This document shows, one piece after another, positions 3,000-43,375 of a DNA stretch of 64,000 bases. A model generated the notes under the pieces. It was not told where the DNA came from. It saw nothing but the letters and a program-made list of their open reading frames with translations, and ran no database searches. Positions within the stretch are counted from its first letter, which is position 1. Each line of letters opens with the position of its first letter. Both the position numbers and the translations under genes were made by a program. Source of the DNA: Naegleria gruberi (taxonomy: Eukaryota); the NCBI GenBank assembly GCA_000004985.1, contig GG738895.1; one strand, 5' to 3'.

Positions 3000-4028
3000 T
3001 TTGTTCTTGAGTGTTGATTAATTGCACTTGACGTTTGATCAATCTACTCGAAAGTTCTTTGTGGTGTTGTGTTCATGATAATCCCGACTTGGAAAGTTGA
3101 AGCTCTGTATGTTGGTGGATTTTCTGTTTAAGAAGAAACAATTGATTTGATTTAAGCGATAGATTAACAAAATATGACTTTCTAATGTAAAGATATATAG
3201 TAACAATAATTTAACATTCATTAGATTTGAACAGTCTATGATAAAATCATGATAGAAACCCAAACCTTGAAATTCTGGAATATTACTGCACAAATTTTAA
3301 TTGTGTACTAAGAAGCCACATACCACAAGGTAATAAGTGCGTTTTGTGAAGTTACAATCTTAATATATTAATGTATTTCCTTATACCTTTGCGCTTATTG
3401 CCAAAGAATCTTTGGGTGACGCTGTAGTTGGTTACAAGTGTTTGGATTCATTTCAGTTGAGATGTATCCTTGCCACCATGAGGAAAATGTAGAGAAACAA
3501 TATGGAAGAATATGCTGCTTGACATGAGGGTGTGTTGCTAGAAACTTTTGTTTATTTGACATTTCTTATTCCAAATCGCTTATTTATTATTCAACAATCA
3601 CAGTTAAAAACACAAGCATATACGGAGGAGTACCATTCCTTTAAGACAACATAGATGACGGTATTGTGCGAGTTTTTATGAAGTTCCAATCTCAATATAA
3701 TTTCGTAATGCCTTAATGAAGGAAAAAGCATCTTATTCATATGCCTTATTGAACATTTTTCACGCAAGAATCTCTTTCAATGACGATATATTATTATCTC
3801 CATCTCCATTTGAGTAAGTGCCGCCTTACTTTGTGGACGTTTTTCAAACTCACCTTAATAGAAAACCAAAAAATTAAAACAACAATAAACACCGATACAC
3901 TCTCTCAGAGGTATAATTCATCTCTCATCTGCGCTCGTGGAGTGTGTACTCGCATACTTGAAGAACTTGATACAAACAACAAATAACAACAACAATTTAT
4001 AAGAAGATAATATAGCATTCTTAACAAC

Positions 4029-6574
4029 ATGACAATGAATAATAAGGTAATTCCCTCAGTGGACGAGAGTATAACCATTAAGGGTGGTTTTAAAAGTGCA
4101 TATGCTGTTGATTCGACGGCCCAAGAGAATGAACAAACAAATAAGGACTTTGATGTTGAGGAAGATATATACCAAGCACCATTCCTATCTATCAAGTGCT
4201 TGCTAATCTTTGTAATCGTGTGTCTGGTCATTTGTACAGTCCTGTTATTGACCACAATTTGGGTCTCTGCTTATAGTACCAATGTTACACAGATGGGAAG
4301 CTCACTTCTTAAAGAACAAATTGAAAAATCGATAGCCTTTACAGATGAAACCATTTCAAAAGTTTTGACCGTTTCTCAGACAACAAAGAATATTATGTGG
4401 AAGGATTTTGATTACTCAGATATTGATACAGTCTATTCTTTAACTTACCGTATTTACAAGTCGTCCTATGAATTCTTGAGCTCTTTAATTGTGACGATAT
4501 ACTTTGGTGATACAATTGGTGGAAATATTGGTGTTCTAGTAATGGGTGGCGAACCTACTCAGATGTATATTAACGAAACAGGTCAATACTATTGGTATTG
4601 TAGGGATATTTTCAATAACGAGAATTGTAACATGTCGTCACCTTCTGAACCAGATATCGTGTTGGGTCCTTTTGACATGTCCAAGATTATGGGAGTAGCC
4701 CATAAATCTCCAAACAAACCAGGATATTCATTATCTTTCACTGATCCAACTTTACCTTCCATAACTTTTATGAGTTGTGTGAATTCACATCCAGCTGTAA
4801 ATACTTCCTTAACAAATGGAGAAGTTTATGATTGGTATTTTGGAATTGATATTAGTGTATCGTCCATCTCTAAATATCTGGAAGATGTTGCCAAACATGT
4901 TTCTGGAGCTGTTTCTTTTGCTATTGAAGTTGAAACTAACTATATTGTTGTTTGTAAGTTTACAATAATATTTTCAAGATTACATTAACAATTCAAGCGA
5001 GCTTTCCGGAAATTCCTGTTTCTGAATGGAGTGCAGATGGAGTGGAAACAAGAATGACACCTCTAACTTTCAAACAAGACAAGGTTAACATGATTGGACA
5101 ATTTATCTATTCAGAATTTTCCAATAATTTGAAATCACAACCTTGCGGAACTTACAGGTATTACTCATTGGATACAATCTTTGTGTCGTCCCATAGATTC
5201 TGTAAGGCTGGAGTTGATTGGTTCTTTGTCTTTTCAGAGCCCAAAATGAATTATATTGGTGACATGATTATTGCAATTATTGTTGGATTGAGTGCCAGTT
5301 TGCTTATTGTCATTGTTGGTGTGATATTGGGAGTAGTGTCATCAATTAGAATTGTCAAACCATTGAATAATTTGATTGAACAATTTTCATCTGTTTCTGA
5401 TATGAATTTGGAGAATATTAACATTTCTCATTCGAATTTTAAGGAAATTTCACTGTTGCAACATCACTTTGAAAGTATGGTCGCTAAAGTCAAACATTAT
5501 AGAAGTTTTATTCCATCCTACCTGATTGACCAATTGGATAAAGGTCAAGCCAGTGCTGCTCCTGCATTCCATAAGCATAGTAGCAGATTTAGAAAGGCAG
5601 GTGTCACTGATTCTGTCGATGGAAAGGGTTCATTCTCTTCAATATTTGATCAATCTGGAAGAAAGAAGAGTTCAAGATCTGGTAAGGGAGTTCCAAAATC
5701 ATTATTTAGATTAGGTCTTGAAAAGAAAACAGTGTCCTTTTCCTTAATTTATTTTGAAGGTCTTTCCAATTATATTACCAATGAATCCATTATTGATGAA
5801 GTTGTTTCTCTAATTGGTGACTTGATGCTTATCGTACAGAAAACCACAAAAGCTACCAATGGATTTACCAGTAATTTTGAACATAATTCAATTATATTAT
5901 CATGGAACTCAACTTCCGATTTGAGAAACCATGAAGAGACATGTCTACTTGCCACGATTCAAATCTTGGATCGATTAAATTCATCAATAGAGAATAAGTG
6001 GAAAGATAGAGGTTATTCCATGTCTTTCAGAACTGCAACAGTTTCACAAGATGTGTTTTGTGGAAACTTGGGAACAGATGAGGCTAAAACCTTTGCAGCT
6101 GTTGGAAGTCAGATCTATAACTTGCAACTATTGTTGAAACAGGCAACCAAGTTAAATATTCCATCCATTGTCACTCAAGAAATCTATGAAAAAACCAACA
6201 ATGTATATTGTTACAGATTTGTTGGTATTAAGAAATTACTCAATCATCATGAGACAGATACATACATGCAATGTACAATTCAACAAGATCACATTCTTCA
6301 CACTCCAAATCGTCTCTATCAATTAGGAGAGACAGTTTCAGATAAGGTTGAGGATGAAGAGTGGATGTACTCACTTTCTAAACAAAATGTAAAGAATGAT
6401 CGTTGGAAACATCACATTGATGGAGCCAATTCTCTTTTACAAGGAGATTACCAAGAGGCGATTGAACATTTCAACAATCATTTGCATTACCATTCAGATA
6501 CAAATTATGGACAAGTGGATAAAGCAACAGCATATTTACTTAAAAAGTGTTTGAAATTGAGTAAACAAGAATAA
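4029..6574 (+). CDS. Membrane protein with a degenerate adenylyl/guanylyl-cyclase homology domain (receptor-type cyclase-like). Exons 4029..4953 and 5037..6574; 83-nt phase-1 intron.
   Basis: ORFs 4029..4988 and 5042..6574 (GTG-start artefact) join in frame via GTAAGT at 4954 and CAG at 5036. Two TM segments flank a ~270-aa ectodomain. The CHD-like region reads SFSLIYFEGLS...LIGDLML...FCGNLGTDEAK...IYNLQ, with the metal-binding Asp replaced by Glu and the transition-state Arg absent. Confidence 0.55.
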
Positions 6575-6683: not shown

Positions 6684-9600
6684 TCAACAACAGCAAGAAC
6701 AACAAGAAGATTTTGAAGATGATCCAGATAATCTCTTTCTTCTCGCTCTTAACACTAAAGCAATGACCACGACAATAATGATGACTACTGTTACAATGAT
6801 AATGAATGAACCACCCAAAGTAGTTGCCAGAATGATAATTTGTTCATTGTTGAGTGAAATTAAATCATTTCTCAATTGTGAAGGTTGCGGCATTCCCTTA
6901 TATTCCGAATTTGCCTTCTTATAATTCTTGTCAATTACTGAAAAGGAAGTCAAGTGAGAAGTTTTGCAAGTAATTAATTGAACATAATATAAAATACCAT
7001 CCACTACTTCCTCATTGTAATATTCAAAAGTGGTAGAAAGTCCTTCACTATTCCACAATTGCATGGAATTATCATAGAATGAACATGTCAAATTGAAAAG
7101 TGTCAAGTTGACTTTGGGAATGTAAACTTTTCCAAATGAAATTTGAATTGGCTCGTTTAGTTGTGAAATTTTCAAAGCTTGATTACTAGAAACGAAGCTC
7201 AATGTTATTACACTAGAAAGGACTTGACCTTTGGTTTCGTCCTTAGACACGGAGGCAATAATGGAAATGTCAGATTTTGGCACTTGATTAGTTTCATTTA
7301 GGTAGGATGATAATGAGCTTGGTAACTTGATAGAAAGCCCATCAAACTTCGTAAAGTTTACCACACGAGAATTCAAATCTTCAACTGTTCCAATAGTTTG
7401 AACAATAATTTCCCTATTCGAATCTTGAATTGGAGCTAGGCATGTGAAATTCTGTTGTTGAGAGAATGATCCTACACAGAACGGAGTAGAACAATCCTTT
7501 CCCAACCAACCTGCTCTACAAGTACATTGATTAGGTGCAGAACAAGTTCCATTTCCATAATTACAAACTTGCGGAGAATTAGCTGGTTGACCAAAACAAA
7601 GATCAATTTCACAATTTAAACCAGTTGAACCAACAGCACAGTTACAAGCATCATAATTTTGGCAATCACCTCTTCCAGAACAAACACTTGCATTTTCAAA
7701 GTGAATTCCAAAACAATTAAAATCTTGACAATACTTTCCATAATATCCAAAAGTACAATTGCATGTTTCTGAAGCAATGCATTGACCTCTTGAATTACAG
7801 ACATTCACATCGGTATTTTCCAAATCGTTACAATAGGTAATATTACAATTGAAACCTGAAAAACCTGGCTTACAAGAGCATGAATTGAGATTCGTACAGT
7901 TTCCATTACGATTATTACAAACTTGTGGAGAATTACTGGCATAACCATAGCAATAAGTAGCACCACAAGCACTTCCATAGAAACCACTATTACACAAACA
8001 CAAATCCTGTTGTAAACAAATTCCATTTCCAGAACAAACATTCAACTGATCTGCCTGCACACCGAAACATGACATGTTTCTTACTTCACAATAAGCTCCA
8101 CCAAATCCATTTTCACATAGGCACGACCGAGAAGCTTGGCATTGACCTCTTCCATTACAAACCTTTGGATCATCTGACATGACATCATTACAAATACTCA
8201 ACTCACAATTTGGACCTCCAAATCCTGGATTACAGGTGCAAAAATTGTAAAACCAACAAGAGCCATGTCCTGAACAAATCTTCTGATCATTAGCCTGCAC
8301 TCCATAGCATGTTTGGTTCAATTCTCTAGTGAGTGTGAAAATATTTCCTCTTGAGGCGAAGGAAATTTCCAAAAATGTCGATTCTTTCACATAAATTGCT
8401 TTTGGATTATCAAGTTGAGAGAAGGGTGGATTGTTCAGTCCCTCCTCTACGTATAGTATTGGAGTAATGAGACCATTAGTCATTGAGATTCTAATTGTTG
8501 ATTCTTCTCCAATGATAAATTCTTTTGTTTTGGTCACGAAGAAACTTGTTGGATATTTTAATTGGGCATTAATGGATTGAATGACAGTATCTCCTGTATC
8601 AGTTCCTCCACCAATGATTCTAATGGCATAGGTCTTGTTCATAACTTGATGGATGGCCATAGTTGTACTTCCTAAAAAGTAAATCATGCCATCAGAACTC
8701 ACAAATAAGGAAGTGATATCTTCCGTTCCAATGAATGCAGTATCAATGGTCAAATTTTGATAAATAATTCTAATTCTATTCTGTGAAGACACATAGATAT
8801 CATTGTTATACAGAGCTATTCCAGATGGATTAGGAACCGATGAAGATCGACCATTGACACCATCTTTGACATTACTGATCATTCCATCACCTGCCAACGT
8901 TTGAACTATTGAATTATTGTACTTGTTAACAAGATGATTTGCTGGTAGTATGTAAAACAAAGCCCCACTTTCATCTGCAACCATTCCACCAACTTGTTCA
9001 TCCGAAACAAGTGAAACTATTCCATTTTCTAGACGATTCATTCTTCTGAAAGGTGAATACTCGGCATATTCACTGAAAAACAATCTATTACTAGAGAATG
9101 TGAATGCATCAATTCTATTAAATGAAGAAAGCAATGGTGGTTGATTACTTGTTGCTACCAAAGTTCCAACAATAGTTGAGATTATTCCATTCTTACTGAT
9201 CTTTCGAATTCTTTGATTGTCGACATCGGCAAAGATGAGTTCATCATTCTCATTGACAACCATATCACCCACTGATGAAGTTTTACTATTAATGGCCAAA
9301 CCTCCATCACCTCCAAAACCATTTTCCATTCCTGCAATTTGCTCAAATTGTCCGCTTGTGTTAAATCTGAAAATTTTGTAAACTTCACATGCAAAATAAA
9401 CATTTCCATTCGAATCAACATCAAAATAAGGATTCAATGAATCTTTCCTGAATAGAGTCAATGCAGTTCCATTCTTGAAAACTTTGTAAAATGTACCCAT
9501 TTCCTGATCGAGAGCATAAAGAGTTTCGTTTACATATTTGGTTGAGTGACTATATTGTGGAAGATTCATAAAGAAAGTAGTATTGGAGGTTCGAATATCT

Positions 9601-10231
9601 AGTTTACGATATGAGCGGGTTGCTGATGATGAGGAGTAGAGTAATTCTCTTTCGTTTAGAATGTGAAGAGAATAGGCTGAACCTTGTAGAAAGTAAACAT
9701 TGGAGACAAGTCCAGTTTTGAAGGAAATTCTTCTGATCATTGCATTTCCACCATCGAGAATATATAAATATTCATTGTTTGGATCAACTGCTAATGAAGG
9801 TATGTATGATCTATTCGAAACATGTTAGTTTCATTTCAAACTAAACCATCCTAAACTTGTAAAACTTACGAAAAGAAAGCATATGTAGCCATAACAGAAT
9901 CTCCACTATACGGTATCAAACTGTTTACTCTAGAATTCCCACCAATCGTATACACATTTCCATTCTTATCAACCTTCTTGATTAGGGGACCTTCTGTGAA
10001 GAATAATTGACCATCTTTCCAAGCCAATGAACCAAGCTGATCAGAAACTCCATAACTAGTGGCTGGAATTCCATTCGTATAGTTGGAACCAACGATGGTT
10101 TTTAGACGATAGGTTGGAGTTTCGAATAGTGCACTCACATGAGATACACACATGCAACTGATTAGCAATAGTGATAAAACCACAGCCACGCACCACAAGA
10201 AACCAAAAGGAACTTTAGGATTTCTTGACAT
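6684..10231 (-). CDS. Single-pass receptor-like protein: signal peptide, NHL-like beta-propeller, ~8 tenascin-type EGF repeats, GPS/GAIN-like motif (C..W..G...CKTSHLTSFSV), TM, short tail ending CCSCCC. Exons 9870..10231 and 6684..9810; 59-nt intron.
   Basis: ORF 9866..10231 supplies the hydrophobic N-terminal signal. GTAAGT at 9869..9864 and AG at 9811 link it in frame to the 1018-aa ORF. EGF repeats look like CNGRGQCQASRSCLCENGFGGAYCE; NHL-like repeats like ELIFADVDNQRIRKISKNG. A GPS motif precedes the TM helix. Paralogous to 19912..22929. Confidence 0.8.
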
Positions 10232-15460: not shown

Positions 15461-16588
15461 TTGAAATCAAAGGACCTTGTGTTTCATTTCCAAATGAAAC
15501 TTTTCAAAAAAATGATTCAACATCAACCTACTCTTCATGAAGACGATGAATCAATCACTTATTCGAATGATCATTTATTTGATTCACTCGGTGTTGATGT
15601 CATGATTGGAGAAATATTTCCACATTTTGAAGTTGAAACTCTACACTCAATTTTCACACTAGTATCCAAGTTTTGGTATGTGTGTGTTTGTTTGTATAGA
15701 GTGGAGTTTCTATCATTGAGAGGAGAATCGAATATTTTAGCTCTTTGTTCGAATTCTCCAAGAATGGTGGAAGTCAACAGTTTGGAGTTGATGCAATTGA
15801 GAGGTGAAACCTTGGTGATGAAAAGGATATTTCTTTCGGATAAGTGTTTTCCTAATAGATTTTCTTCACTTACTAGTCTTTCGTTTTATGGATCGAAAAT
15901 TGGAGATTCTTCTCTCAAATATTTAACACATTCGGCTATCTTACCTAATTTAACTGAATTGGATCTGTATCACAATAACATTACTGATAAAGGAATGAAA
16001 TCCATTTGTGAAGGAAATTTGAAACTTTCCATTCTGAAACTCAATTTAAATCGTGTAGGAGATTTAGGTTTTGAATTTCTCAAAAATTCTCAAATTTTGA
16101 AAGAAAATTTAAAAGAACTTTACATGACCTACAATGAAGTTACATCAAAAGGATTGGAAATTCTGAGCGGAATGGAAAATTCACGTCTCGAAACCTTAGT
16201 TCTAGTGAGCAACCGAATAGAATCGAATATTACAAACTTCTGTGCTAGCTCTCTTGCATCTCAATTGAAACATTTAAATTTGTCAAATAACTTATTGGGA
16301 AATAGTGGAGTCTTGGACATTTGTTCGGGAAATTTTCAATCCTTAGAAACCTTAATATTATCAAAGAATGCAATTCCAAAGGAATCCATTAGTATGCTAT
16401 TTGAAAGTAGTAATGGATTAAATTTGAAGAAATTGAAACATTTGGATTTGTATGGAAATGATTATATTCAAGTTGACGAGTTGGCAATTCCAACTTTCAA
16501 TTCCTTAGAAACTCTAATCTTTTCACATAGCTATAGGAACCCTTATTACCACCTATTCTGGCAAACCAAACAATTTTCAGCAAATTAA
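15461..16588 (+). CDS. F-box-like / RNI-type leucine-rich-repeat protein.
   Basis: 375-aa ORF. N-terminal F-box-like stretch (IGEIFPHFEVETLHSIFTLVSKFW), then repeated LxxLxLxxNxI units (LTELDLYHNNITDKGM..., LKHLNLSNNLLGNSGV...). Confidence 0.55.
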   Translation: MKSKDLVFHFQMKLFKKMIQHQPTLHEDDESITYSNDHLFDSLGVDVMIGEIFPHFEVETLHSIFTLVSKFWYVCVCLYRVEFLSLRGESNILALCSNSPRMVEVNSLELMQLRGETLVMKRIFLSDKCFPNRFSSLTSLSFYGSKIGDSSLKYLTHSAILPNLTELDLYHNNITDKGMKSICEGNLKLSILKLNLNRVGDLGFEFLKNSQILKENLKELYMTYNEVTSKGLEILSGMENSRLETLVLVSNRIESNITNFCASSLASQLKHLNLSNNLLGNSGVLDICSGNFQSLETLILSKNAIPKESISMLFESSNGLNLKKLKHLDLYGNDYIQVDELAIPTFNSLETLIFSHSYRNPYYHLFWQTKQFSAN

Positions 16589-16605
16589 TAAGGAATATTA
16601 ATTTT

Positions 16606-16615
16606 AAACCAAAAA
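16606..16615 (+). promoter_or_regulatory. Upstream element AAACCAAAAA, 70 nt 5' of tRNA-like gene copy 1 (DUSE-like).
   Basis: The same decamer lies 69-71 nt upstream of all four tRNA-like genes. It resembles the dictyostelid ncRNA upstream element (A/T)CCCA(C/T)AA, which sits about 60 nt upstream of ncRNA genes. Confidence 0.4.
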
Positions 16616-16675
16616 TGATTTGAATTATTAAAAGAAAATTCACAAATATAGTTAGTGGGAAGATTGCAGATTTGT

Positions 16676-16751
16676 GGGTGAATAGTTTAATTGGGAGAAC
16701 GTAGCCGTTGCACTAGAAGCTAAGGCGGTAGATCGAACCTACCTTCACCTA
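16676..16751 (+). ncRNA. tRNA-like Pol III gene, copy 1 (non-canonical 21-nt anticodon arm: stem TAGC/GCTA, loop 13 nt).
   Basis: Acceptor GGGTGAA/TTCACCT, D-arm GTTT-AATTGGGA-GAAC, T-arm GGTAG-ATCGAAC-CTACC, discriminator A. A T5 run at 16760..16764 follows immediately. Confidence 0.6.
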
Positions 16752-16871
16752 CGCTTAGCTTTTTCCCCACCAATTCTTAATAATTATTTAATAATACTAT
16801 ATAAATAATATTTAAAGAAATCATATCATACATTAATATTTAGGGTGAATATTTAAAGATATGATGTTAAA

Positions 16872-18472
16872 TTATGATTTTTCCTTTTCACTATTCTCTT
16901 CGTTCATCATAACCAATATTTGTTGAATAATTTCACATAAGGCAGTATCTTGGTCAGAATGCATCATTTCTTCGAGAGTATCCCTTATTCCACACTTATT
17001 CATTTCCTCTCTGAAATTATTGTTTTTCAATAGACTCAAAAGAGTACTCAAACAAATTTGGTTAACAGCTACTAATGACAATCCTTGATGAAGTATTGGT
17101 ACAACTCCAATCTTAATTAAATAATCAATAATATCGTCCGTTGCCGTAGTACATAAATTGTAGATAACATAGTAAGGTTCCTCTTTCACTATTAATTCGG
17201 TATTTTGTTTGACAGCTTCAATCACTAATTCAATAATTCCAGACTCAACAGCCGCTCTAATATGATCAATGGTTCCAGCAGTAATATTTGAAACGATAAA
17301 AATTGCTTCTTTCTTTAGAAAAGCATTCTCATTTAAAATGAAGGATGATAATGCAGATAATAATCGAATATTCAACATGTGGTCTGTATGAGAATTATTT
17401 CTTGTAACTATATATCCAACTAATTGAAGACAACCACTGAAAATATGAATATATTAACGTGAAATATTAAAGAATAATTTGAGAATAGATACTTACACTT
17501 GTATACTTGTACATTCAGAGGAAAGCAGCAAAATAACTTTTTCGATAATATTACCATAAGCTTGAATAAGTATTTCGATATGATCATCACTTATTGCTAT
17601 TTGAATAAGTGCCCAACAAACATTATTGACAACATCCTCATCAGAAGTATTAATTAATTTGGAGAGAACTGGCAGAACCATTTTGACATATTTGATAGAT
17701 ACATATGGTATTCCTCTCATCAAATTTACTAAGCACCATGAACCTAAATTAATCATAAGCCAATCATATCAAATAATATAGACCTACCCGTTCTTAGTAA
17801 ATTTACGAGAAATGTTTCATTTAAAAGATCTAATAAAGGCGTTAATACATCCCACTCCAGGACGAAATCTCTGAACCTGATAGAATCTCCACAAATATTT
17901 CCCAAAGCCCAAATGGCTTGTTCTCTCACGTTACAATCTGTCGAGTTTTTCAGTAGATTGATAAATGTAGGAACACATCCCAGCTCTACAACATGTGCTG
18001 TATCATATGGTGATCCACTAGCAATATTTGTCAATGACAATACTGATTCAAAAATCAATTTGTCAACCTGCACTTTTGTAATTGGATTTTCAGATTGATT
18101 ATTCCCATTTTCAATAGTGTAATATTTTGTAATATTCTCATGATCAAGAAAGTTTACCAACATTTTTGTACTACCGGCTTCAATGACCTTTCGAATATTG
18201 GCCGGTCGGTTATCCTCTCTCACTAATAGGCTTCTAATTGTCGTTACAGTTTCCAATACAGTTTTAAAGGAATTACATTGCATATCCAAATAATAATTTA
18301 AAATTCCGAGTTGATCAAGAGACAAGACTATTTCTCTTCTCTTGAGATGACGATTGCAAAATTTGGTTCGGGATTTATCAGAAATGCTTTTTCTAATTTT
18401 TTGTTTTTCTTTCCAAATGATTGCATTGGCGTGGAAAGATGATGAAATTGTTGCTGATTGTTGTTCACGCAT
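16872..18472 (-). CDS. Divergent importin-alpha (karyopherin-alpha)-like ARM-repeat protein. Exons 17788..18472, 17497..17743, 16872..17436; introns 44 and 60 nt.
   Basis: ARM repeats resemble importin-alpha (LTNIASGSPYDTAHVVELGCVPTFINLL...VREQAIWALGNICGDS; NVCWALIQIAISDD; KEAIFIVSNITAGT). N-terminus is basic and IBB-like. Splice junctions GTAGGT...TTTAG and GTAAGT...TTTCAG restore frame between the three track ORFs. Confidence 0.7.
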
Positions 18473-18638
18473 TTTTTTTTAAAAATTTGCTTGGAAATGA
18501 AAAATTCCATAAATATTTATGCAATCATTGTAAACTAAAAGATACAACAGCAATGATTGAAAATTTATTGAATGAAACCAAATATTTGCATAAATAGCAT
18601 ACAAGTTTTATCAATTTTTCGATAATGTTATTAATTTT

Positions 18639-18648
18639 AAACCAAAAA
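18639..18648 (+). promoter_or_regulatory. Upstream element AAACCAAAAA, 71 nt 5' of tRNA-like copy 2.
   Basis: Same decamer and spacing as copies 1, 3 and 4. Confidence 0.4.
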
Positions 18649-18709
18649 CTGTTGGAAATTTCCAAATAAAATTTCTCGAAAAAGGTTAATTATGAAATTG
18701 ATTTTTTGT

Positions 18710-18784
18710 GGGTGAATAGTTTAGTGGGAGAACATAGAAGGTACGGTAGATTCTAAGGCGGTAGATCGAAACTACCTTCACCTA
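18710..18784 (+). ncRNA. tRNA-like Pol III gene, copy 2 (anticodon arm stem TAGAA/TTCTA, loop 11 nt).
   Basis: Acceptor GGGTGAA/TTCACCT, D-arm GTTT-AGTGGGA-GAAC, T-arm GGTAG-ATCGAAA-CTACC. T-runs at 18793..18796 and 18800..18804. Confidence 0.6.
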
Positions 18785-18871
18785 CACAAAACTTTTAAAT
18801 TTTTGAGTTTACAATAAATGTTTATTTTCTTTAAATAGGCATTTTCAATGCAATTTAAAAAGAATAATTGT

Positions 18872-18881
18872 AAACCAAAAG
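18872..18881 (+). promoter_or_regulatory. Upstream element AAACCAAAAG, 69 nt 5' of tRNA-like copy 3.
   Basis: Variant of the decamer conserved upstream of the four copies. Confidence 0.35.
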
Positions 18882-18940
18882 ATTGATTGACATATTTTGA
18901 GAACTTTTACAATAATGATTGGTTCGAATTTCTGATTAGT

Positions 18941-19016
18941 AGGTGAATAGTTTAATTGGGAGAATGCAGTGGTCTATGTTGAATCTGCGGTGGTAGATCG
19001 AAACTACCTTCGCCTA
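18941..19016 (+). ncRNA. tRNA-like Pol III gene, copy 3 (A1:U72, with U4:G69 wobble in acceptor; anticodon arm stem GCAG/CTGC, loop 15 nt).
   Basis: Acceptor AGGTGAA/TTCGCCT, D-arm GTTT-AATTGGGA-GAAT, T-arm GGTAG-ATCGAAA-CTACC. T5 run at 19020..19024. Confidence 0.6.
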
Positions 19017-19152
19017 CTCTTTTTCCCTCCAAAATATGAGATAAATCATTTGATGCCTAGAAGACAAAGTACTGTTGAGATATATGATAAAGATCAAGTT
19101 TAAAAAATATGTGGAAATGTCATCATCTCTTTGAATATAGAAAATTAATTGT

Positions 19153-19162
19153 AAACCAAAAA
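19153..19162 (+). promoter_or_regulatory. Upstream element AAACCAAAAA, 71 nt 5' of tRNA-like copy 4.
   Basis: Same decamer and spacing. Confidence 0.4.
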
Positions 19163-19223
19163 TTGAATTACAATATTTTTAGAAATTTCACAATTAGGGT
19201 TGAGATCATAATTGGTCGTTGTT

Positions 19224-19300
19224 AGGTGAATGGTTTAATTGGGAGAACGCAGAGGTCCAGAGTAGAATCTGAGGTGGCAGATCGAAACTGCCTTCACCTA
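19224..19300 (+). ncRNA. tRNA-like Pol III gene, copy 4 (A1:U72; T-stem GGCAG/CTGCC compensatory; anticodon arm stem CAGA/TCTG, loop 14 nt).
   Basis: Acceptor AGGTGAA/TTCACCT, D-arm GTTT-AATTGGGA-GAAC, T loop ATCGAAA. T5 run at 19303..19307. Confidence 0.6.
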
Positions 19301-19368
19301 ACTTTTTACAACAATATTAAATTTTTTTAAATATTGTAAAGTTTTATTATAAATATACACAGTTTCCA

Positions 19369-19911: not shown

Positions 19912-22900
19912 ATGGTAAAGCTCTGGTATTTTCTGACAGTTTTATTGTCAATATTGATACTAGTGAGCCATTCATGTCAAGCAAAAGTCATTGATCCAAA
20001 TTCTCTCAACGCGGCAGTTGCTACTCATCTATACGAAAGAAAATTTCTGGGAGCTTTATGTGATGGAACTACTGGACTTGCATGTTATACTGGATATGTA
20101 AAACAAACCTTTCTCTACAATGAAACAGAATTGTATTTTACTAATAGTTTTACCAAGTCCATTAACAAGTATAATCTTCAGACGAAAGTGGTGGAAACTA
20201 TTGTTGGAACAGGTTCTTATCACAGAGCTCCTTTAACGCTCAGCGATTTGTATGCAACTCCAAAGGAAACTAATATTGGAGAACCTAATAGCGTTGCTGT
20301 TTATCAAGGATTCGTCTACTTTACAACAATTGAAAATACTGACGTGATTTTCAGAGTCAAAAGTGAAGGTAGTGGACTTGTTACAATCTTTGCTGGTGTT
20401 TCTGGGTCAACTGGTTATAATCCTTTGGTAATTTCAAGAACCTCTTCACCACTTTCTGGTCCAACTTATCTGAATTTCTATTCGAATGGTAATTTAATCT
20501 TGTATGAGAGTGAAATTTGTACCATTCGATTAATTTCTGGTAATAATATTACAACACTCGCAGGAAATGGCCTATGCAACTATGCCTATGTAAACAACAC
20601 ACTTTCGAATGGAATTTCGGCCATGACAATTTCCACCGATCAAATACTCTACATTTCCACACCTAGTGGAGTTATAATGAAATGGAATGGTGCAGATTTC
20701 GTAACTGTCTATGACACCCAAGCTTTTGTCAGCAGTTTGGCAGCAAACTCTGCAAATATTTACTTTACAACAGATACGAATGAGTTAAGCTCAGTTTCTA
20801 TTGATGGTTCGAATAGAGTTGTGTTGATGGGACCTAATCTAGGTTTCATGAGTGATGGCCAAGTTCTTTCTGGTGGAAAGACTGCCTCTCCAATGGCATT
20901 GTCCATTAGTAAGGCAAGTTCAACATTATTCTTTTCCGAAAATGGAAATGCCAGAATTAGAACTTATTTAAATGCCAATGTTAAAACCCTTATTGGATTT
21001 AGCTCATCAGGTTCAGCAGCTACTACTCTTGTCAATCCAACAAAGATGGCTCTCGTTGGATCCAATCTCTATGTTTTAGAGACCATGTCCGGCAGCATCC
21101 TCAATTATGATGTTAGTGGAAACGCTCCTGCTGGAGGTGGTGGTTACAAATTAGTGACATCCATTGCAGGATGTTCCAGTATTGTTGCCATTAATAATAC
21201 AGTCTATGTTGGCTCAACTCTATATAATTCAGTGTATAAGATTGAGGGAACTAAGGCGATAAGAATTGCTGGAAATGGAACTAATTTATCTAGTGGAGAT
21301 GGAAAGTATGCGAATGCTTCAACCATTTCAAATCCATTGGCGTTGGCTTCTGATTCGAGTGGAAGTTTATACATTCTTTCTACAAATATTATTAGAAAGG
21401 TCGATAAGAATGGAATCATTTCCACTCTATACAATTATTTTAGCACTGGATTGAATGATATTTACATTAGTGAAAAGGATGAAATATTAATCAGTGATTT
21501 GAAAGGTTATGTTTATCAATTGACCTGTACAACAGATTTATTTCAATTTTGTGGCTATATCCAAATTGCTGGTGTTTCTAATGGATTAGCCAGAAGTGTT
21601 GGTTTTAATAATGCATTAGAAGTGCCAATTAAGCCACTCACCATCTCTGCAGTGTCAAATTTCAAAACTGGTTACTGGAATACTTTGTTAATTTCTGAAT
21701 CGACAAGTATTTCAGTAGTTTCAGAAGGACTTATTTCTGGATTAGTCTACAATCCAAAGAATAGCCCAACAGTTAGTTTTCAAACCCTTCAAGTGACTGG
21801 CTTTGCAGTCAACCAAACCAATGGAGTCATTTACGTTTCAGGTCCTTACGGAATTTCAACATTAACTCCTTACAAATTACCAAGGGAAGCTTGTCCATGT
21901 TCTGGAAATGGAATTTGCTATTCGAATAATCCAAATCTCTGTCTTTGTGATCAAGGATGGAGTGGAACCAAATGTGCACTTCCATTGTGTAATGGAATTC
22001 TTTCTACAAATCCACAAGTTTGTACGAATGGTCAAGGAGTTTGTAGTGCTCCAGATAGTTGTGTTTGTAAATCTGGATTTGTTGGAACTCAATGTCAAAT
22101 TCCATTCTGTGTAGGATCAACTCTGAATGAAAACTTTACTTGTTCTGAAAGTCAGTCAAATTCGGGAAGCAATTCATCGACAAGTACAAAACAGGAAATT
22201 ATTGTTGAGGTTGTTGAGACAGTGACTGATCTAAATTCCAAGAATTTGACATTTACTACTGTTGACACTATTGAAGTTGTCTTTCCTTCAAACTTTTCAA
22301 GTTATCTTTCACAAACCATTTCACAAATTGCCAATAATCCAATTACACTAGTTTCGTCTGTGGTTGACTCTACAAATTCAAGCACTAATCCAAGTGAAAA
22401 TCCTGTCAAACCTCAACTCGTAGTCAGTCCAGTAATCACTCTCTCACTATTTACCAATTCTTCCATGATAATTTCTGTGAAAAACTTGGAGAAACCAATC
22501 GAATTACTCTTCACAAATATTCAACTCTCAAAAATTGAATCTTCCTCCAATCTTACATGCATGTTTTTCGATACCTCAATCAATGATTGGAGCGACGAAG
22601 GAATTTCCTCAAAAATCATTTCCATTCAACAAGCCGATTCTCAATTCGTAATTTCCATGAAATGTGAAACGAAACATTTAACTTCCTTTGCAGTAATTGA
22701 TAAGAATTATAAGAAACAAGTTTCGTCTCCCAATGAAGGAGGAAACAAAATACCAGCAACTGTTTCTGAATGGAAAAGTCAATTGGAAGGATTGAGTGAA
22801 AGTGAAATTATTGCAATTTCAGTTTCGATTGGTGGATCATGTTTGATTATTGCAACTTTGGCGATTTTAATTAGTGTAGTTTGTATCATTGTCATGAAGA

Positions 22901-22929
22901 GAAAGAAAAATCGTTGTTTAACCATTTAA
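19912..22929 (+). CDS. Paralog of the 6684..10231 receptor: signal peptide, NHL-like propeller, EGF repeats, GPS/GAIN-like motif (CMFFDTSINDWSDEG...MKCETKHLTSFAVI), TM, short tail ending CLTI.
   Basis: 1005-aa intronless ORF. Collinear with the 6684 gene through the segments IIVEVVETVTDLNSKNLTF / IIVQTIGTVEDLNSRVVNF and KHLTSFAVIDKNYKK / SHLTSFSVIDKNYKK. Confidence 0.8.
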   Translation: MVKLWYFLTVLLSILILVSHSCQAKVIDPNSLNAAVATHLYERKFLGALCDGTTGLACYTGYVKQTFLYNETELYFTNSFTKSINKYNLQTKVVETIVGTGSYHRAPLTLSDLYATPKETNIGEPNSVAVYQGFVYFTTIENTDVIFRVKSEGSGLVTIFAGVSGSTGYNPLVISRTSSPLSGPTYLNFYSNGNLILYESEICTIRLISGNNITTLAGNGLCNYAYVNNTLSNGISAMTISTDQILYISTPSGVIMKWNGADFVTVYDTQAFVSSLAANSANIYFTTDTNELSSVSIDGSNRVVLMGPNLGFMSDGQVLSGGKTASPMALSISKASSTLFFSENGNARIRTYLNANVKTLIGFSSSGSAATTLVNPTKMALVGSNLYVLETMSGSILNYDVSGNAPAGGGGYKLVTSIAGCSSIVAINNTVYVGSTLYNSVYKIEGTKAIRIAGNGTNLSSGDGKYANASTISNPLALASDSSGSLYILSTNIIRKVDKNGIISTLYNYFSTGLNDIYISEKDEILISDLKGYVYQLTCTTDLFQFCGYIQIAGVSNGLARSVGFNNALEVPIKPLTISAVSNFKTGYWNTLLISESTSISVVSEGLISGLVYNPKNSPTVSFQTLQVTGFAVNQTNGVIYVSGPYGISTLTPYKLPREACPCSGNGICYSNNPNLCLCDQGWSGTKCALPLCNGILSTNPQVCTNGQGVCSAPDSCVCKSGFVGTQCQIPFCVGSTLNENFTCSESQSNSGSNSSTSTKQEIIVEVVETVTDLNSKNLTFTTVDTIEVVFPSNFSSYLSQTISQIANNPITLVSSVVDSTNSSTNPSENPVKPQLVVSPVITLSLFTNSSMIISVKNLEKPIELLFTNIQLSKIESSSNLTCMFFDTSINDWSDEGISSKIISIQQADSQFVISMKCETKHLTSFAVIDKNYKKQVSSPNEGGNKIPATVSEWKSQLEGLSESEIIAISVSIGGSCLIIATLAILISVVCIIVMKRKKNRCLTI

Positions 22930-23000: not shown

Positions 23001-24462
23001 ATGCAGCAACATCACAATCAACCTTTCCCGTCCAATTCATCATCATCATCATCACTACCACATCACCATCATCATCAAAATAATAATATTCACCAAATAG
23101 TTAATCATCAACATTACATGGAAAATCCGCTTTCCCGAATAAATTTCCGAGCAGAAAAACAATTTCTCGAAAGGCGGGAATTTTATGGCAAGTGTAGGAA
23201 CGTGGAAGAGTTTGAAAAGTTGGAGAAGATATTTGAGAATGTGTACAAGGCAAGGGATTTGAAGAGTAATGAGATTGTGGCGTTGAAGAGATTAGATTTT
23301 AGTTCGAGATATGAGGAGGGAATTTCGTTGGCTTATTTGAGAGAAATTTCATATTTGCAACAATTTTGTCAAGAATTGAAACATGGAAATATTTTGGGAT
23401 TGAGGGAGATGGTGGTTGGAAGTAAATTGGATAGTGTATTTATTGTGATGGATTTTATAGAGAATGATTTGACGACTGTGATTGATAAATCAAAGAGATT
23501 TGCATTGCTTGAATCGGAAATTAAGTGTATAATGTTACAAATTTTAGAGGGTGTGAATTATTTACATGAAAATTTGATTATTCATAGGTAAATATTCGAT
23601 TTTGAATGATTCAAAACCTTTGAGTAGAGATTTAAAACCCTCTAACATTTTATATGATAGAGGAATTATTAAGATTATTGATTTTGGATTGGCAAGGAGT
23701 GACACAAAGTTTTTGGATGGAGATCTCGCCTATGGAAGTAGTCATCAAAAGGACTCTATCATTGAAATGTTCAAGAAAAAGACGCCAAATCTCATAACCC
23801 TCTGGTATAGACCTTTAGAACTCTTGTTGGGGACATTGGACTATGACAAGTCGATTGATATGTGGAGTGTTGGATGTATTTTTGCTGAAATACTATTGAG
23901 GAGGCCATTATTTGGAGCTGATACTGAAATTCAAGCATTTGATATGATATTCAAACTGTTAGGAGCACCAAGTGAATCATGGCTCAAGTCAGGGAATTTC
24001 CCTTCTGCCTCCAAATACCTTTCCCCTAATTTACTGAAAAAGTATGAAAATGTGAATGCCCGTGAAAATATTAGAAGAACATTCTCTCAAGCTAATGTAG
24101 ATCCGAAATGTATTGACCTCATTGAAAAGCTTCTCGTTATTGATCCAAAGAAACGACTCACATGTAAGGAAGCACTCAATCATGACTATTTCAAGACTTA
24201 TCCACTTGCATGCTCACCCAAACAATTACCCTCCTTTATTGAGAGAGATTTTGTGCAATATAAACGATCATCACACAATCATCGTCATTTATACGATGAT
24301 GACAATTATGAGAGAGATGGTTATCAGCATCAGCAGCACCACCATCAGCACAATAATTATTCCACACATAACGATCAGCACAACGAATATCAGCAACACA
24401 ACAAACGAGGAAGAAATGATTACAATTCCGAAAGAAATGATCAGTGGAAGAAACGAAAGTAA
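23001..24462 (+). CDS. CDK-family Ser/Thr protein kinase with His/Ser-rich N- and His/Gln-rich C-terminal extensions. Exons 23001..23587 and 23628..24462; 40-nt intron.
   Basis: Kinase subdomains VALKRL, a PSTAIRE-like ISLAYLREISYLQ, HRDLKPSNIL reconstituted across the intron (GTAAAT at 23588, AG at 23627), DFGLAR, and WYRPLELLLG. Confidence 0.8.
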
Positions 24463-32150: not shown

Positions 32151-33704
32151 TTAATTTTGTAATAATCCTTCCAAAATGGCAATGTAATGAACAATAGAAT
32201 CCAAATACACATTTTCATCCAAATATTCGTTGTGGTCATGAAGCAAAACCTTGGTATTTGGCATGTAACTGTATCCGATCATGTTGACACCGGCAGCTCT
32301 TGGGAACTAATAAAGAATTAATAAATATAATGCAAAATAACTTACTCTGGCATCAGTGGCAGCTGGGAAAATTCTCAATTCTGTCTTCATTCTTGAAGAG
32401 ACAATATCTAAGAATTTCTTAACAGTTTCATCATTAAGATCAGCAACTGGATTGATCTTTGGTTGTTCAATAAACTTGATGGTACCATTAACAAAATCAG
32501 CCCATGAACGAAGCATAATTTCAATTTCCTTCAAGTCAATATGTGGTGGAATTCTCATATCAAACAAGGCAGTAGCTGTTCTTGGAATAACATTAGGACT
32601 AGAGAATTCTCCAGTTTCCTTGTTGGTATGTCCTGCTCTGAGACCTGTCAAATTGATAGTAATAACAGTACTACATTGTGTCTTTTCTCTTGGATTGTTG
32701 GTTTGCAATCTCATTTGAACTTGTTGTTGTTCTCTGAATGGGAAAACCTTTTCATTGAGCAATTTGTAAATCTTTTCAGTGGCTGTTTGAGGAATGAATT
32801 GAGAGCCGTGTCCAACATTACCTGTGGCAGTAATTTCAAACCAGTGAGCAACATTTTCACCATAATAAATTGGGATTATATCTTCATCCAATCCACTTGC
32901 CAAACCTTCATCAATACCAAAACTAACATTCAATTCCTTCCACAATTCGTTTTGAATCAAACATTCCCATCCATCATCACCTCCAATTTCTTCATCAGCA
33001 ATAAAAACAACTTGAAGATTTCTCTCTGGTTTGAATCCAGATTCCACAAGAGCAACAAGAGCTTCCATGTAACCAGTTCCGATATTCTTCATATCTTGAG
33101 ATCCTCTCGAGTAAACTCTTCTGCCCTTTCCTGTATTTTCATCAACCATTGTTGCATCAAATGGTGGATACTTCCATTGATCCTTATCAACAGGAACTAC
33201 ATCAGTATGACTATTAATCATGATACTTCCCTTCGAAGCATCTCTTCCTTTCCATGTAAATATAAAACTTGGTTTAGCAGGATTGCAATGGAAAATATAA
33301 TACTTGAGAATGGAATTTTCTCCAGTCTTTAAATTAGCATTCACTTGCACTTCCTTGATCGGATCAGTACTATCATCAATATGGAAAACACTTCTTGTCC
33401 ATTTCAACAGAAAATCAATAGCAGTGGCATAATCAGGCTTTGGATGTTGAGTAGGTAATCTCAAATAGTCTTGGAATCGTTTCATGATATCATCACGAAG
33501 GCTTTGATCCGAGTAGATTTTACTCTTGTATTGATCGGCTAAAGTTGTTGTTGTTGTTGTTGGAATGTGGATATCTACAATGGGATCTGCATTAATTTGT
33601 TGTTGTTGTTGATCCGATCCAAATACAACATTGATGAACAATACACAACACAATACAATTATTAAAATTGATGGTGATGAATTGTAAAAATTAAATCTTT
33701 TCAT
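32151..33704 (-). CDS. Aminoacylase-1-like M20 metallopeptidase, secreted (signal peptide). Exons 32346..33704 and 32151..32306; 39-nt intron.
   Basis: Matches the ACY1 family: NSHTDVVPVDKDQWKYPPFDA, SRGSQDMK, FIADEEIGG, FPAATDAR. The last exon (FPRAAGVNMIGYSYMPNTKVLLHDHNEYLDEN...) is found after GTAAGT...TTATTAG, and the track ORF end at 32307 is the acceptor AG. Confidence 0.8.
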
Positions 33705-41702: not shown

Positions 41703-42080
41703 GTTTTACAATTATTCGAAAGAAGCGAATTAATTTTTTTGGACAAAATCATATTTAGAATTTTTGTCAACTGTTACTCAATAGTTCTAACTTGTTGTAA
41801 AATTACAATAGTAGCCATTAACTGTTCAATTTTTTCATAACATGATAACAGCCTTTTTCAGTAAAGGAATCGATTCTATCAATATTTTTACATTATGCTT
41901 CATTGGTTGGAATTTATCTGACTCGCTCTTTGCTACTAGATATTTCATTGTTTTTGGACCAATATGTATCAAAGTCTATCTAATGAATAATTGAAAGTCT
42001 CGGTAATCCATTTGGTAGTTTTGCATGAATGGAACAACTATTGTTAACACAAATATATTCCACGGAAAAAAAGATAAAAA

Positions 42081-42198
42081 GACTACAGCACCACAGGTTC
42101 CCAAGTTGTCTCCAACCTCAGTACTGATGTGGCTCGACGATGCTTAACTTCTCAAATCGGACGGGATGAGGTGCATTCATCGTGATATGGCCGTAGCC
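42081..42198 (-). rRNA. 5S ribosomal RNA gene (118 nt).
   Basis: Minus-strand read: GGCTACGGCCATATCACGATGAATGCACCTCATCCCGTCCGATTTGAGAAGTTAAGCATCGTCGAGCCACATCAGTACTGAGGTTGGAGACAACTTGGGAACCTGTGGTGCTGTAGTC. It carries eukaryotic 5S hallmarks (GGCCATA, CCCGTCCGAT, AGTACT, GGGAAC, GTGCTGTAG). A T5 terminator lies immediately 3' (plus 42076..42080). Confidence 0.85.
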
Positions 42199-43302: not shown

Positions 43303-43338
43303 TGGAGTCATAGGGAATCGAACCCTAGACCTTCTGCA

Positions 43339-43369
<31 letters not shown>

Positions 43370-43375
43370 AACCCC
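43303..43375 (-). tRNA. tRNA-Ala (anticodon UGC).
   Basis: Minus-strand read GGGGTTATAGCTCAGTTGGTAGAGCGTCTGCTTTGCATGCAGAAGGTCTAGGGTTCGATTCCCTATGACTCCA. Has the G3:U70 Ala identity pair, anticodon loop TTTGCAT, a canonical T loop, and a T-run terminator just 3' (plus 43296..43301). Confidence 0.9.

Follow-up and report, generated by a model that had tools for sequence, protein, structure and literature searches.

A conserved upstream block and a tRNA-like fold in four clustered, putative RNA polymerase III genes of Naegleria gruberi

Four paralogous tRNA-like genes in the nuclear DNA of the amoeboflagellate Naegleria gruberi (Heterolobosea) were found to carry a conserved 17-bp block, TAATTKTAAACCAAAAR, at a fixed position about 70 nt upstream. 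All four lie on the + strand in a 2.7-kb cluster, where three form a tandem set, in a 64,000-nucleotide stretch of contig GG738895.1 (GenBank assembly GCA_000004985.1) that was analysed as a whole and is referred to here as the window. A sequence-only reading of this DNA had reported a shorter upstream decamer and had proposed hybrid promoters, external plus internal, for RNA polymerase III (Pol III); the observation was confirmed, and its interpretation is partly supported. The loci are best read as Pol III genes, tRNA-like in form, that carry a conserved external element.

The reading we favour, to which we give a probability of about 0.6, is that these are four paralogous Pol III genes with a composite promoter, made up of the 17-mer, an A/T-rich region near -30 and internal A and B boxes, and that they yield a non-decoding, tRNA-shaped RNA of ~81–90 nt. 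The polymerase, the promoter role of the block, the factor that binds it and the start site we infer from sequence. Centred ~66 bp upstream of the likely start, the 17-mer would act as a proximal or upstream sequence element (PSE/USE) and could be bound by a SNAPc-like complex or by another Myb-type factor. The A/T-rich region would form the second part of the promoter and the internal boxes the third, with a B box of the weaker, initiator type (GATCGAAAC); the external PSE/USE-like element would assist this sub-optimal internal promoter. The probable start of transcription is one of the first two bases of a 10-bp terminal stem, and its probable end a T4–T5 run that starts 1–7 nt past the stem. 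Upstream PSE/TATA elements are combined with internal boxes in the vertebrate tRNA-Sec, vault, 7SL and EBER genes.

The decamer, AAACCAAAAR, had been placed 69–71 nt upstream of each gene, and its starts at 16606, 18639, 18872 and 19153 were reproduced; they precede the tRNA +1 positions at 16676, 18710, 18941 and 19224 by 70, 71, 69 and 71 nt (copies 1–4, respectively). Seven occurrences were counted in the window where 1.85 are expected, a number that was reached in none of 100 shuffles. Because the three remaining occurrences (3863, 10200, and 26159) have nothing tRNA-like downstream, the background is close to the chance rate and the excess is wholly gene-linked. The conserved block proved longer than the decamer, which forms the core of the 17-mer. 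Zero-mismatch matches to the 17-mer number exactly four in the window, every one at a tRNA-like gene: TAATTTTAAACCAAAAA at 16599–16615 (copy 1) and at 18632–18648 (copy 2), TAATTGTAAACCAAAAG at 18865–18881 (copy 3), and TAATTGTAAACCAAAAA at 19146–19162 (copy 4), all on the + strand. Measured from the first base of the terminal stem, the 17-mer spans about -74 to -58 in 4/4 copies, which is where a PSE-like element (~-50 to -70) would be looked for. The stop codon of a leucine-rich repeat open reading frame (ORF; 15461–16588) lies 11 nt ahead of the 17-mer of copy 1, and this copy sits between two convergent genes; the block there therefore belongs to the small gene and not to a protein-gene promoter.

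At other loci the block was sought without result. TAAACCAAAAR was found at none of 42 other loci examined, and inspection of tRNA-Ala and tRNA-Thr, the window's two bona fide tRNA genes, bore out the statement that they lack the upstream element; the block was likewise not present upstream of the 5S gene of the window. A search of the whole window with Rfam at E ≤ 1 turned up no further non-coding RNA (ncRNA) gene on which the block could be checked, and no further motif common to the four loci was found upstream or downstream. A copy of the 17-mer with two mismatches, TCATTGTAAACTAAAAG (18525–18541, +), lies 107 nt upstream of the block of copy 2 with no gene 70 nt on from it, and may be a decayed promoter relic or a chance occurrence.

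Between the 17-mer and the gene, a second, A/T-rich block reads AAATTCACAAWTAKRGTT and covers ~-40 to -21 from the tRNA +1. In copy 1, it is AAATTCACAAATATAGTTAG (16636–16655, +), a possible TATA-like element, with equivalents on the + strand at 18669–18688, 18902–18921 and 19183–19202 in copies 2, 3 and 4. The ungapped pairwise identity of this block is 0.61, against 0.28 for the background and ~0.30–0.33 in the adjoining segments. A comparable A/T-rich CAATAAATAG is found at ~-38 to -29 of the tRNA-Ala gene. Within the genes, the A-box-like and B-box-like motifs that had been described were both recovered and are invariant across copies: TAGTTTAGTGGG fits TRGCNNAGTGG at 10 of 11 positions, and GATCGAAAC is the initiator-tRNA form of the B box, also found in the tRNAi-Met gene of Naegleria lovaniensis. 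The A-box-like motifs of copies 1–4 lie at 16683–16695, 18717–18728, 18948–18960 and 19231–19243. The B-box-like motifs lie at 16731–16739 in copy 1 (GATCGAACC, a match to the B-box pattern, in a T arm at 16727–16743) and at 18764–18772, 18996–19004 and 19280–19288 in copies 2–4. With these internal boxes present, the arrangement is a hybrid one, not a pure type 3 promoter.

Downstream of the genes, the T-runs that had been noted were found to start 1–7 nt past the terminal stem in 4/4 cases and resemble Pol III terminators. A T5 run at 16760–16764 starts 7 nt past the last stem base of copy 1 (6 nt between); copy 2 is followed by a T4 run at 18793–18796, with a second T5 at 18800–18804; the T5 run of copy 3 (19020–19024) starts 2 nt past the last stem base (1 nt between); and that of copy 4 (19303–19307) abuts the stem end. 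The longest T run within any of the four genes is T3. At a random site, a T4 that begins no more than 9 nt away has an expected frequency of 8%, and four of four would arise by chance at ~5e-5. T-runs likewise close the 5S gene and the tRNA genes found in the window. A near-consensus A box, an initiator-type B box and these T-runs together indicate Pol III. A T6 run stands directly ahead of the stem of copy 2, at -8 to -3; since it would stop Pol III coming from upstream, the start would have to be at the first stem bases. With such a start, the 17-mer would occupy ~-74 to -58 and the proximal A/T-rich block ~-37 to -22, a spacing that resembles the geometry of PSE/USE plus TATA promoters.

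A different use of the block can be imagined, as the PSE-type element of a Pol II gene of the small nuclear RNA (snRNA) kind, or as a site for some factor outside the basal Pol III machinery, whether a regulator, an insulator or a chromatin factor, the T-runs then being incidental. We consider this unlikely, given T-runs directly after all four genes with none inside, A and B boxes that are tRNA-type and near-consensus, and a tRNA-shaped transcript in which no Sm site and no 3′ box were identified. In its favour, a 17-mer copy with two mismatches, TAATAGAAAACCAAAAA (3856–3872, +), lies ~160 nt upstream of the ATG of a protein-coding ORF (4029–4988) and has TATAAT ~40 nt downstream, so that the motif might also be present in Pol II promoters. 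AAACCA, moreover, fits the WAACCA type, which we take to be a form of Myb site. PSE, USE and dictyostelid upstream sequence element (DUSE) sequences serve Pol II and Pol III small-RNA genes alike (for DUSE, PMC7919456).

The distribution of conservation was followed in an alignment of the four promoter-plus-gene units (A1), with mean pairwise identity taken by segment. Identity is 0.38 far upstream, 0.87 in the 17-mer, 0.50 over the 18 columns after it, 0.63 in columns 79–100, 0.48 in the last 20 columns ahead of the gene, 0.86 and 0.87 in the conserved gene halves, 0.58 in the anticodon arm, and 0.39 downstream; unrelated AT-rich 60-mers aligned likewise gave 0.31 ± 0.05. Invariant columns make up 15 of 17 in the 17-mer, whereas elsewhere in the upstream part of the unit they make up 9 of 38 (binomial P = 3e-8). 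Similarity between the copies had been said to continue across -70 to -1; from -60 to -1, however, it is patchy, and only the second block (~-40 to -21) stands out. The accompanying proposal, that promoter and gene were duplicated as one unit, is supported by this alignment. Along the unit, a conserved segment gives way to a diverged one, then to a weakly conserved one, to another diverged one and finally to the conserved gene, an order that neither a simple, recent duplication nor one continuous conversion tract would leave. The order speaks for purifying selection acting on the -70 block, not for recent copying.

Copying alone, by a tandem duplication that took in ~80 bp of upstream DNA, could in principle have left the block as residual similarity or as a conversion tract with no promoter role. 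All four copies are indeed paralogous within 2.7 kb, three in tandem, and the segments between block and gene stand above random (0.48–0.63 vs 0.31 in the control), which indicates that divergence within the unit is not saturated. This explanation nonetheless appears improbable: the 17-mer is far above the adjacent upstream columns in conservation and equal to the gene halves, a conversion tract, being contiguous, would not leave out the 57 bp that separate the block from the gene, and within the gene the anticodon arm has diverged to 0.58.

With the two ends of the terminal stem as boundaries, the four genes span 16673–16753, 18707–18786, 18938–19018 and 19221–19302 (copies 1–4, all +). They scored 101.5, 96.7, 98.4 and 100.6 bits, respectively, with R1, a covariance model built in this analysis (A2/R1), A2 being the four-way structural alignment of the genes. 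The Rfam tRNA model (gathering score 29) gave 46.7 bits for copy 2 and 35.4 bits for copy 3, but to do so it had to pass over 11 nt and 15 nt, respectively, of the anticodon loop, and it did not report copies 1 and 4 at E ≤ 10. None of the four copies was called by ARAGORN at default settings; relaxed settings gave contradictory isotypes, with copy 2 read as Tyr with a 4-nt intron and copy 4 as Trp. In A2, the genes form a cloverleaf of 23 pairs in which 98.9% of stem cells are paired and five pairs show compensatory changes. Pairing fell to 36–47% in slid-partner controls, and RNAalifold predicted the same cloverleaf unaided. The T stem of copy 4 shows a compensatory change, GGCAG/CTGCC.

The acceptor stem is 10 bp long, with three extra pairs beyond the tRNA ends (positions 1 and 72–73) in 4/4 copies. 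The outermost pair covaries as UG, UA, AU and GC (in copy 1, 16673–16675 pair with 16751–16753), and no such extension was seen in the flanks of tRNA-Ala and tRNA-Thr. A stem of this length would seal the ends of the RNA, which argues against normal RNase P/Z processing and charging. The T loop, AUCGAAA (A54, A60), is of the initiator type, and copies 3 and 4 have A1:U72. Both D and T loops are invariant among the four copies, as are the tertiary positions U8, A14, G18G19 and the triples 12-23-9 and 13-22-46; the 15-48 pair, as read from A2, covaries in three of the four. The anticodon stem has 3–5 bp and carries a loop of 11–15 nt (anticodon-loop regions 16706–16720, 18739–18751, 18971–18985 and 19254–19268) with no consistent U33 or anticodon. 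At the centre of the loop, 4–5 nt are hypervariable (TGCA, TACG, CTAT and CCAGA), with conserved flanks, G(G/T) and (C/G)T(A/T)GA(A/T); neither a consistent anticodon reading nor a target was found for the variable loop. The product would accordingly be an L-shaped mimic of tRNA whose structure is under selection, and neither a tRNA that decodes nor the relic of one.

That the loci are decaying tRNA pseudogenes and the architecture a relic is very unlikely: the absence of default ARAGORN calls and the inconsistent relaxed identities, the 11–15-nt anticodon loops and the unusually many tDNAs reported for N. gruberi (924; PMC2888827) would suit such decay, whereas the substitutions are non-random, with nearly all stem cells paired, five compensatory pairs and three added base pairs past the tRNA ends, the D and T loops and tertiary-interaction positions are preserved, with 15-48 covarying, and promoter block and terminators are kept in 4/4 copies.

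Several other identities were tried and rejected. Real tRNAs with mini-introns would have inconsistent anticodons (Ala, Arg, amber and Trp in one register) or, in a Ser register, would require a 2-nt variable loop, and their bodies would be near-identical across the supposed isotypes. Vault RNA is unlikely, there being no full-length major vault protein (MVP) in Naegleria and no Rfam vault match at E ≤ 10; the Heterolobosea, represented by Naegleria, have no full-length MVP genes (PMC12547018). For a promoter of the trypanosome type, with a companion tRNA, the upstream space is too small for a divergent gene. A mascRNA-like 3′-end element was set aside as well, a gene-following position being found in copy 1 only.

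A number of results weigh against Pol III transcription from a composite promoter as we propose it. The evidence comes from only four related sequences in one 2.7-kb cluster, which limits their phylogenetic independence. The proximal block is not significantly conserved when invariant columns are counted (8/22, P = 0.13), the -30 region has no clear TATA box, and copy 4 is without a TATA-like word. The internal boxes alone might be enough, as in ordinary tRNA genes, and the block would then be a modulator and not part of the core. Searches for relatives also came back empty. R1 gave no match in 84 kb of other heterolobosean DNA, taken from N. lovaniensis, from Willaertia and from environmental contigs. 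Of two pattern scans of metagenomes, the first returned nothing and the second 17 matches in bacterial coding sequence or unrelated tRNA, with no homologue among them; scans of viral contigs yielded one 22-nt match inside an RNA-virus replicase ORF (L040) and no homologue, and a scan of prokaryote genomes yielded no homologue. From four paralogues, the case is strong for selective conservation of block and fold and indirect for promoter function.

The surroundings of the cluster were also annotated. The DNA of the window is gene-dense, with short introns and a G+C content of 31–38% per 2-kb window. Copy 1 is separated from copies 2–4 by an importin-alpha/ARM-like gene with two short introns (16872–18472, −). 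No Naegleria protein in an index of 5.8 billion sequences matched its first exon, and the gene may be unannotated or very divergent; for synteny, this neighbour had no indexed Naegleria homologue, and the relatives of the CDK10-like neighbour (23001–24462; 98% identity to another N. gruberi protein, from the same 333,733-bp contig) lay on non-syntenic contigs. Two paralogous proteins of ~1000 amino acids with teneurin-like NHL and EGF domains are encoded at 6684–9740 (−) and 19912–22929 (+), the latter directly downstream of the tRNA-like cluster; it also has a weak, below-threshold match to the GPS motif and a C-terminal hydrophobic segment. A 465-amino acid ORF at 32307–33704 (−) matches an N. 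gruberi M20 peptidase, with every residue identical as far as an intron boundary; this match and that of the CDK10-like gene place the host among the heteroloboseans and not the dictyostelids.

Other genes of the Pol III type were seen close together. In the N. gruberi window, a dispersed 5S rRNA gene (42080–42198, −) lies 1.1 kb from tRNA-Ala (43303–43375, −), and in N. lovaniensis (L021) the tRNAi-Met gene (8029–8100) is followed 225 nt on by a 5S gene (8325–8443) that stands ~1.6 kb upstream of the M20 peptidase orthologue. There appears to be clustering of Pol III genes. On a metagenome contig, Ga0209048_10124278 (L002), six tandem tRNA genes occupy 56–715, and an apparent intron-containing, initiator-type tRNA-Met at ~1500–1640 (−) has a T arm, GGTAGATCGAAACTACC, that agrees exactly with the T arm of the Naegleria tRNA-like genes.

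The literature searched held no description of these genes or of any Naegleria small-RNA promoter, and nothing on small-RNA promoters or gene-external Pol III elements in Heterolobosea. If validated, the -70 element would be a handle for annotating ncRNA genes in Naegleria, as the DUSE is for dictyostelids; it could be made into a cassette for expressing guide or hairpin RNAs by way of Pol III in N. gruberi and possibly in the pathogen Naegleria fowleri; and it would add a data point on the age of the USE/PSE system. The RNAs themselves make up an unexplained family that combines a tRNA shape and an initiator-type T loop with an acceptor end that is sealed and a loop that evolves fast. A broader and more tentative proposal is that the loci represent an undescribed, lineage-specific class of stable tRNA-mimic RNAs, L-shaped, closed by 10 bp (neither processed nor charged) and bearing a hypervariable 4–5-nt patch, and that they are expressed from the first PSE/USE-type element identified in a heterolobosean. 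On that view, the CC-A core of this element would correspond, within Discoba, to the plant USE, the dictyostelid DUSE and the insect PSEA, pointing to an ancient SNAPc-type recognition, and the RNA might be a mimic associated with the ribosome or the signal recognition particle (SRP), like sRNA-76/85 of trypanosomatids. We hold this to be possible rather than probable.

Among known systems, the DUSE was the one to which the sequence-only reading had likened the block, and the likeness is best taken as one of analogy, not membership, in that a CC(C)A core is found in an element placed upstream at -60/-70. The Naegleria element misses the consensus quoted for the DUSE, (A/T)CCCA(C/T)AA, and its host is not a dictyostelid; ACCAAAAA, ~58–67 nt ahead of the putative start, differs from this three-C consensus at 2/8 positions. 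The DUSE lies ~60 nt upstream of dictyostelid ncRNA genes and has a CCC core, or CC in some groups, and the authors who described it did not expect the element outside Dictyostelia (PMC7919456). The two-C variants, compared here by their wording in that study, come nearer to ACCAAAA. Like the DUSE and the plant USE, the Naegleria block is short, contains a CC(C)A core and lies at a fixed ~60–70 nt ahead of small ncRNA genes closed by T-runs. It differs in belonging to Discoba, not to Amoebozoa or plants, in lying at ~-67/-58 from the putative start where the DUSE is at ~-60, and in being known here from one gene family, whereas the DUSE serves many ncRNA classes.

Hybrid and type-3-like Pol III promoters offer a second comparison, with an external element at ~-55 to -75, an A/T-rich region at -30 and a T-run terminator. 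As in the tRNA-Sec, vault and 7SL genes, internal boxes of the A/B type would contribute; U6 and 7SK are of the pure external type, whereas the Naegleria loci carry internal boxes besides. The Naegleria element is unrelated in sequence to the metazoan PSE, and there is no clear TATA box. The tRNA-Sec gene is similar, too, in being tRNA-shaped with an extended acceptor stem; the Naegleria RNAs, however, have no UCA anticodon, long variable arm or 9/4 geometry, and are therefore not tRNA-Sec.

Canonical tRNA genes share with these loci the cloverleaf, the conserved tertiary positions, the A and B boxes and the T-run terminator, and differ from them in the 11–15-nt anticodon loop, the covarying 10-bp acceptor stem and the conserved -70 block. 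The initiator tRNA-Met is closer in its T loop, AUCGAAA, and in the A1:U72 of copies 3 and 4; the tRNAi-Met of N. lovaniensis has GATCGAAAC in common with the tRNA-like genes, while its arms are otherwise different. Within Discoba, trypanosomatid small-RNA promoters use a divergent upstream tRNA gene and not a -70 block. The trypanosomatid SRP's tRNA-like RNA, sRNA-76/sRNA-85, is a component of a ribonucleoprotein that contacts the ribosome and does not decode (PMC2800229). Set beside it by description and not by sequence, the Naegleria RNAs are alike in being stable, tRNA-like small RNAs (~76–85 nt in the trypanosomatid case) of a Discoba lineage, and unlike in comprising several paralogues with a hypervariable loop. 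By this analogy, sRNA-76/85 would be the nearest functional precedent in Discoba for the tRNA-like RNAs of N. gruberi.

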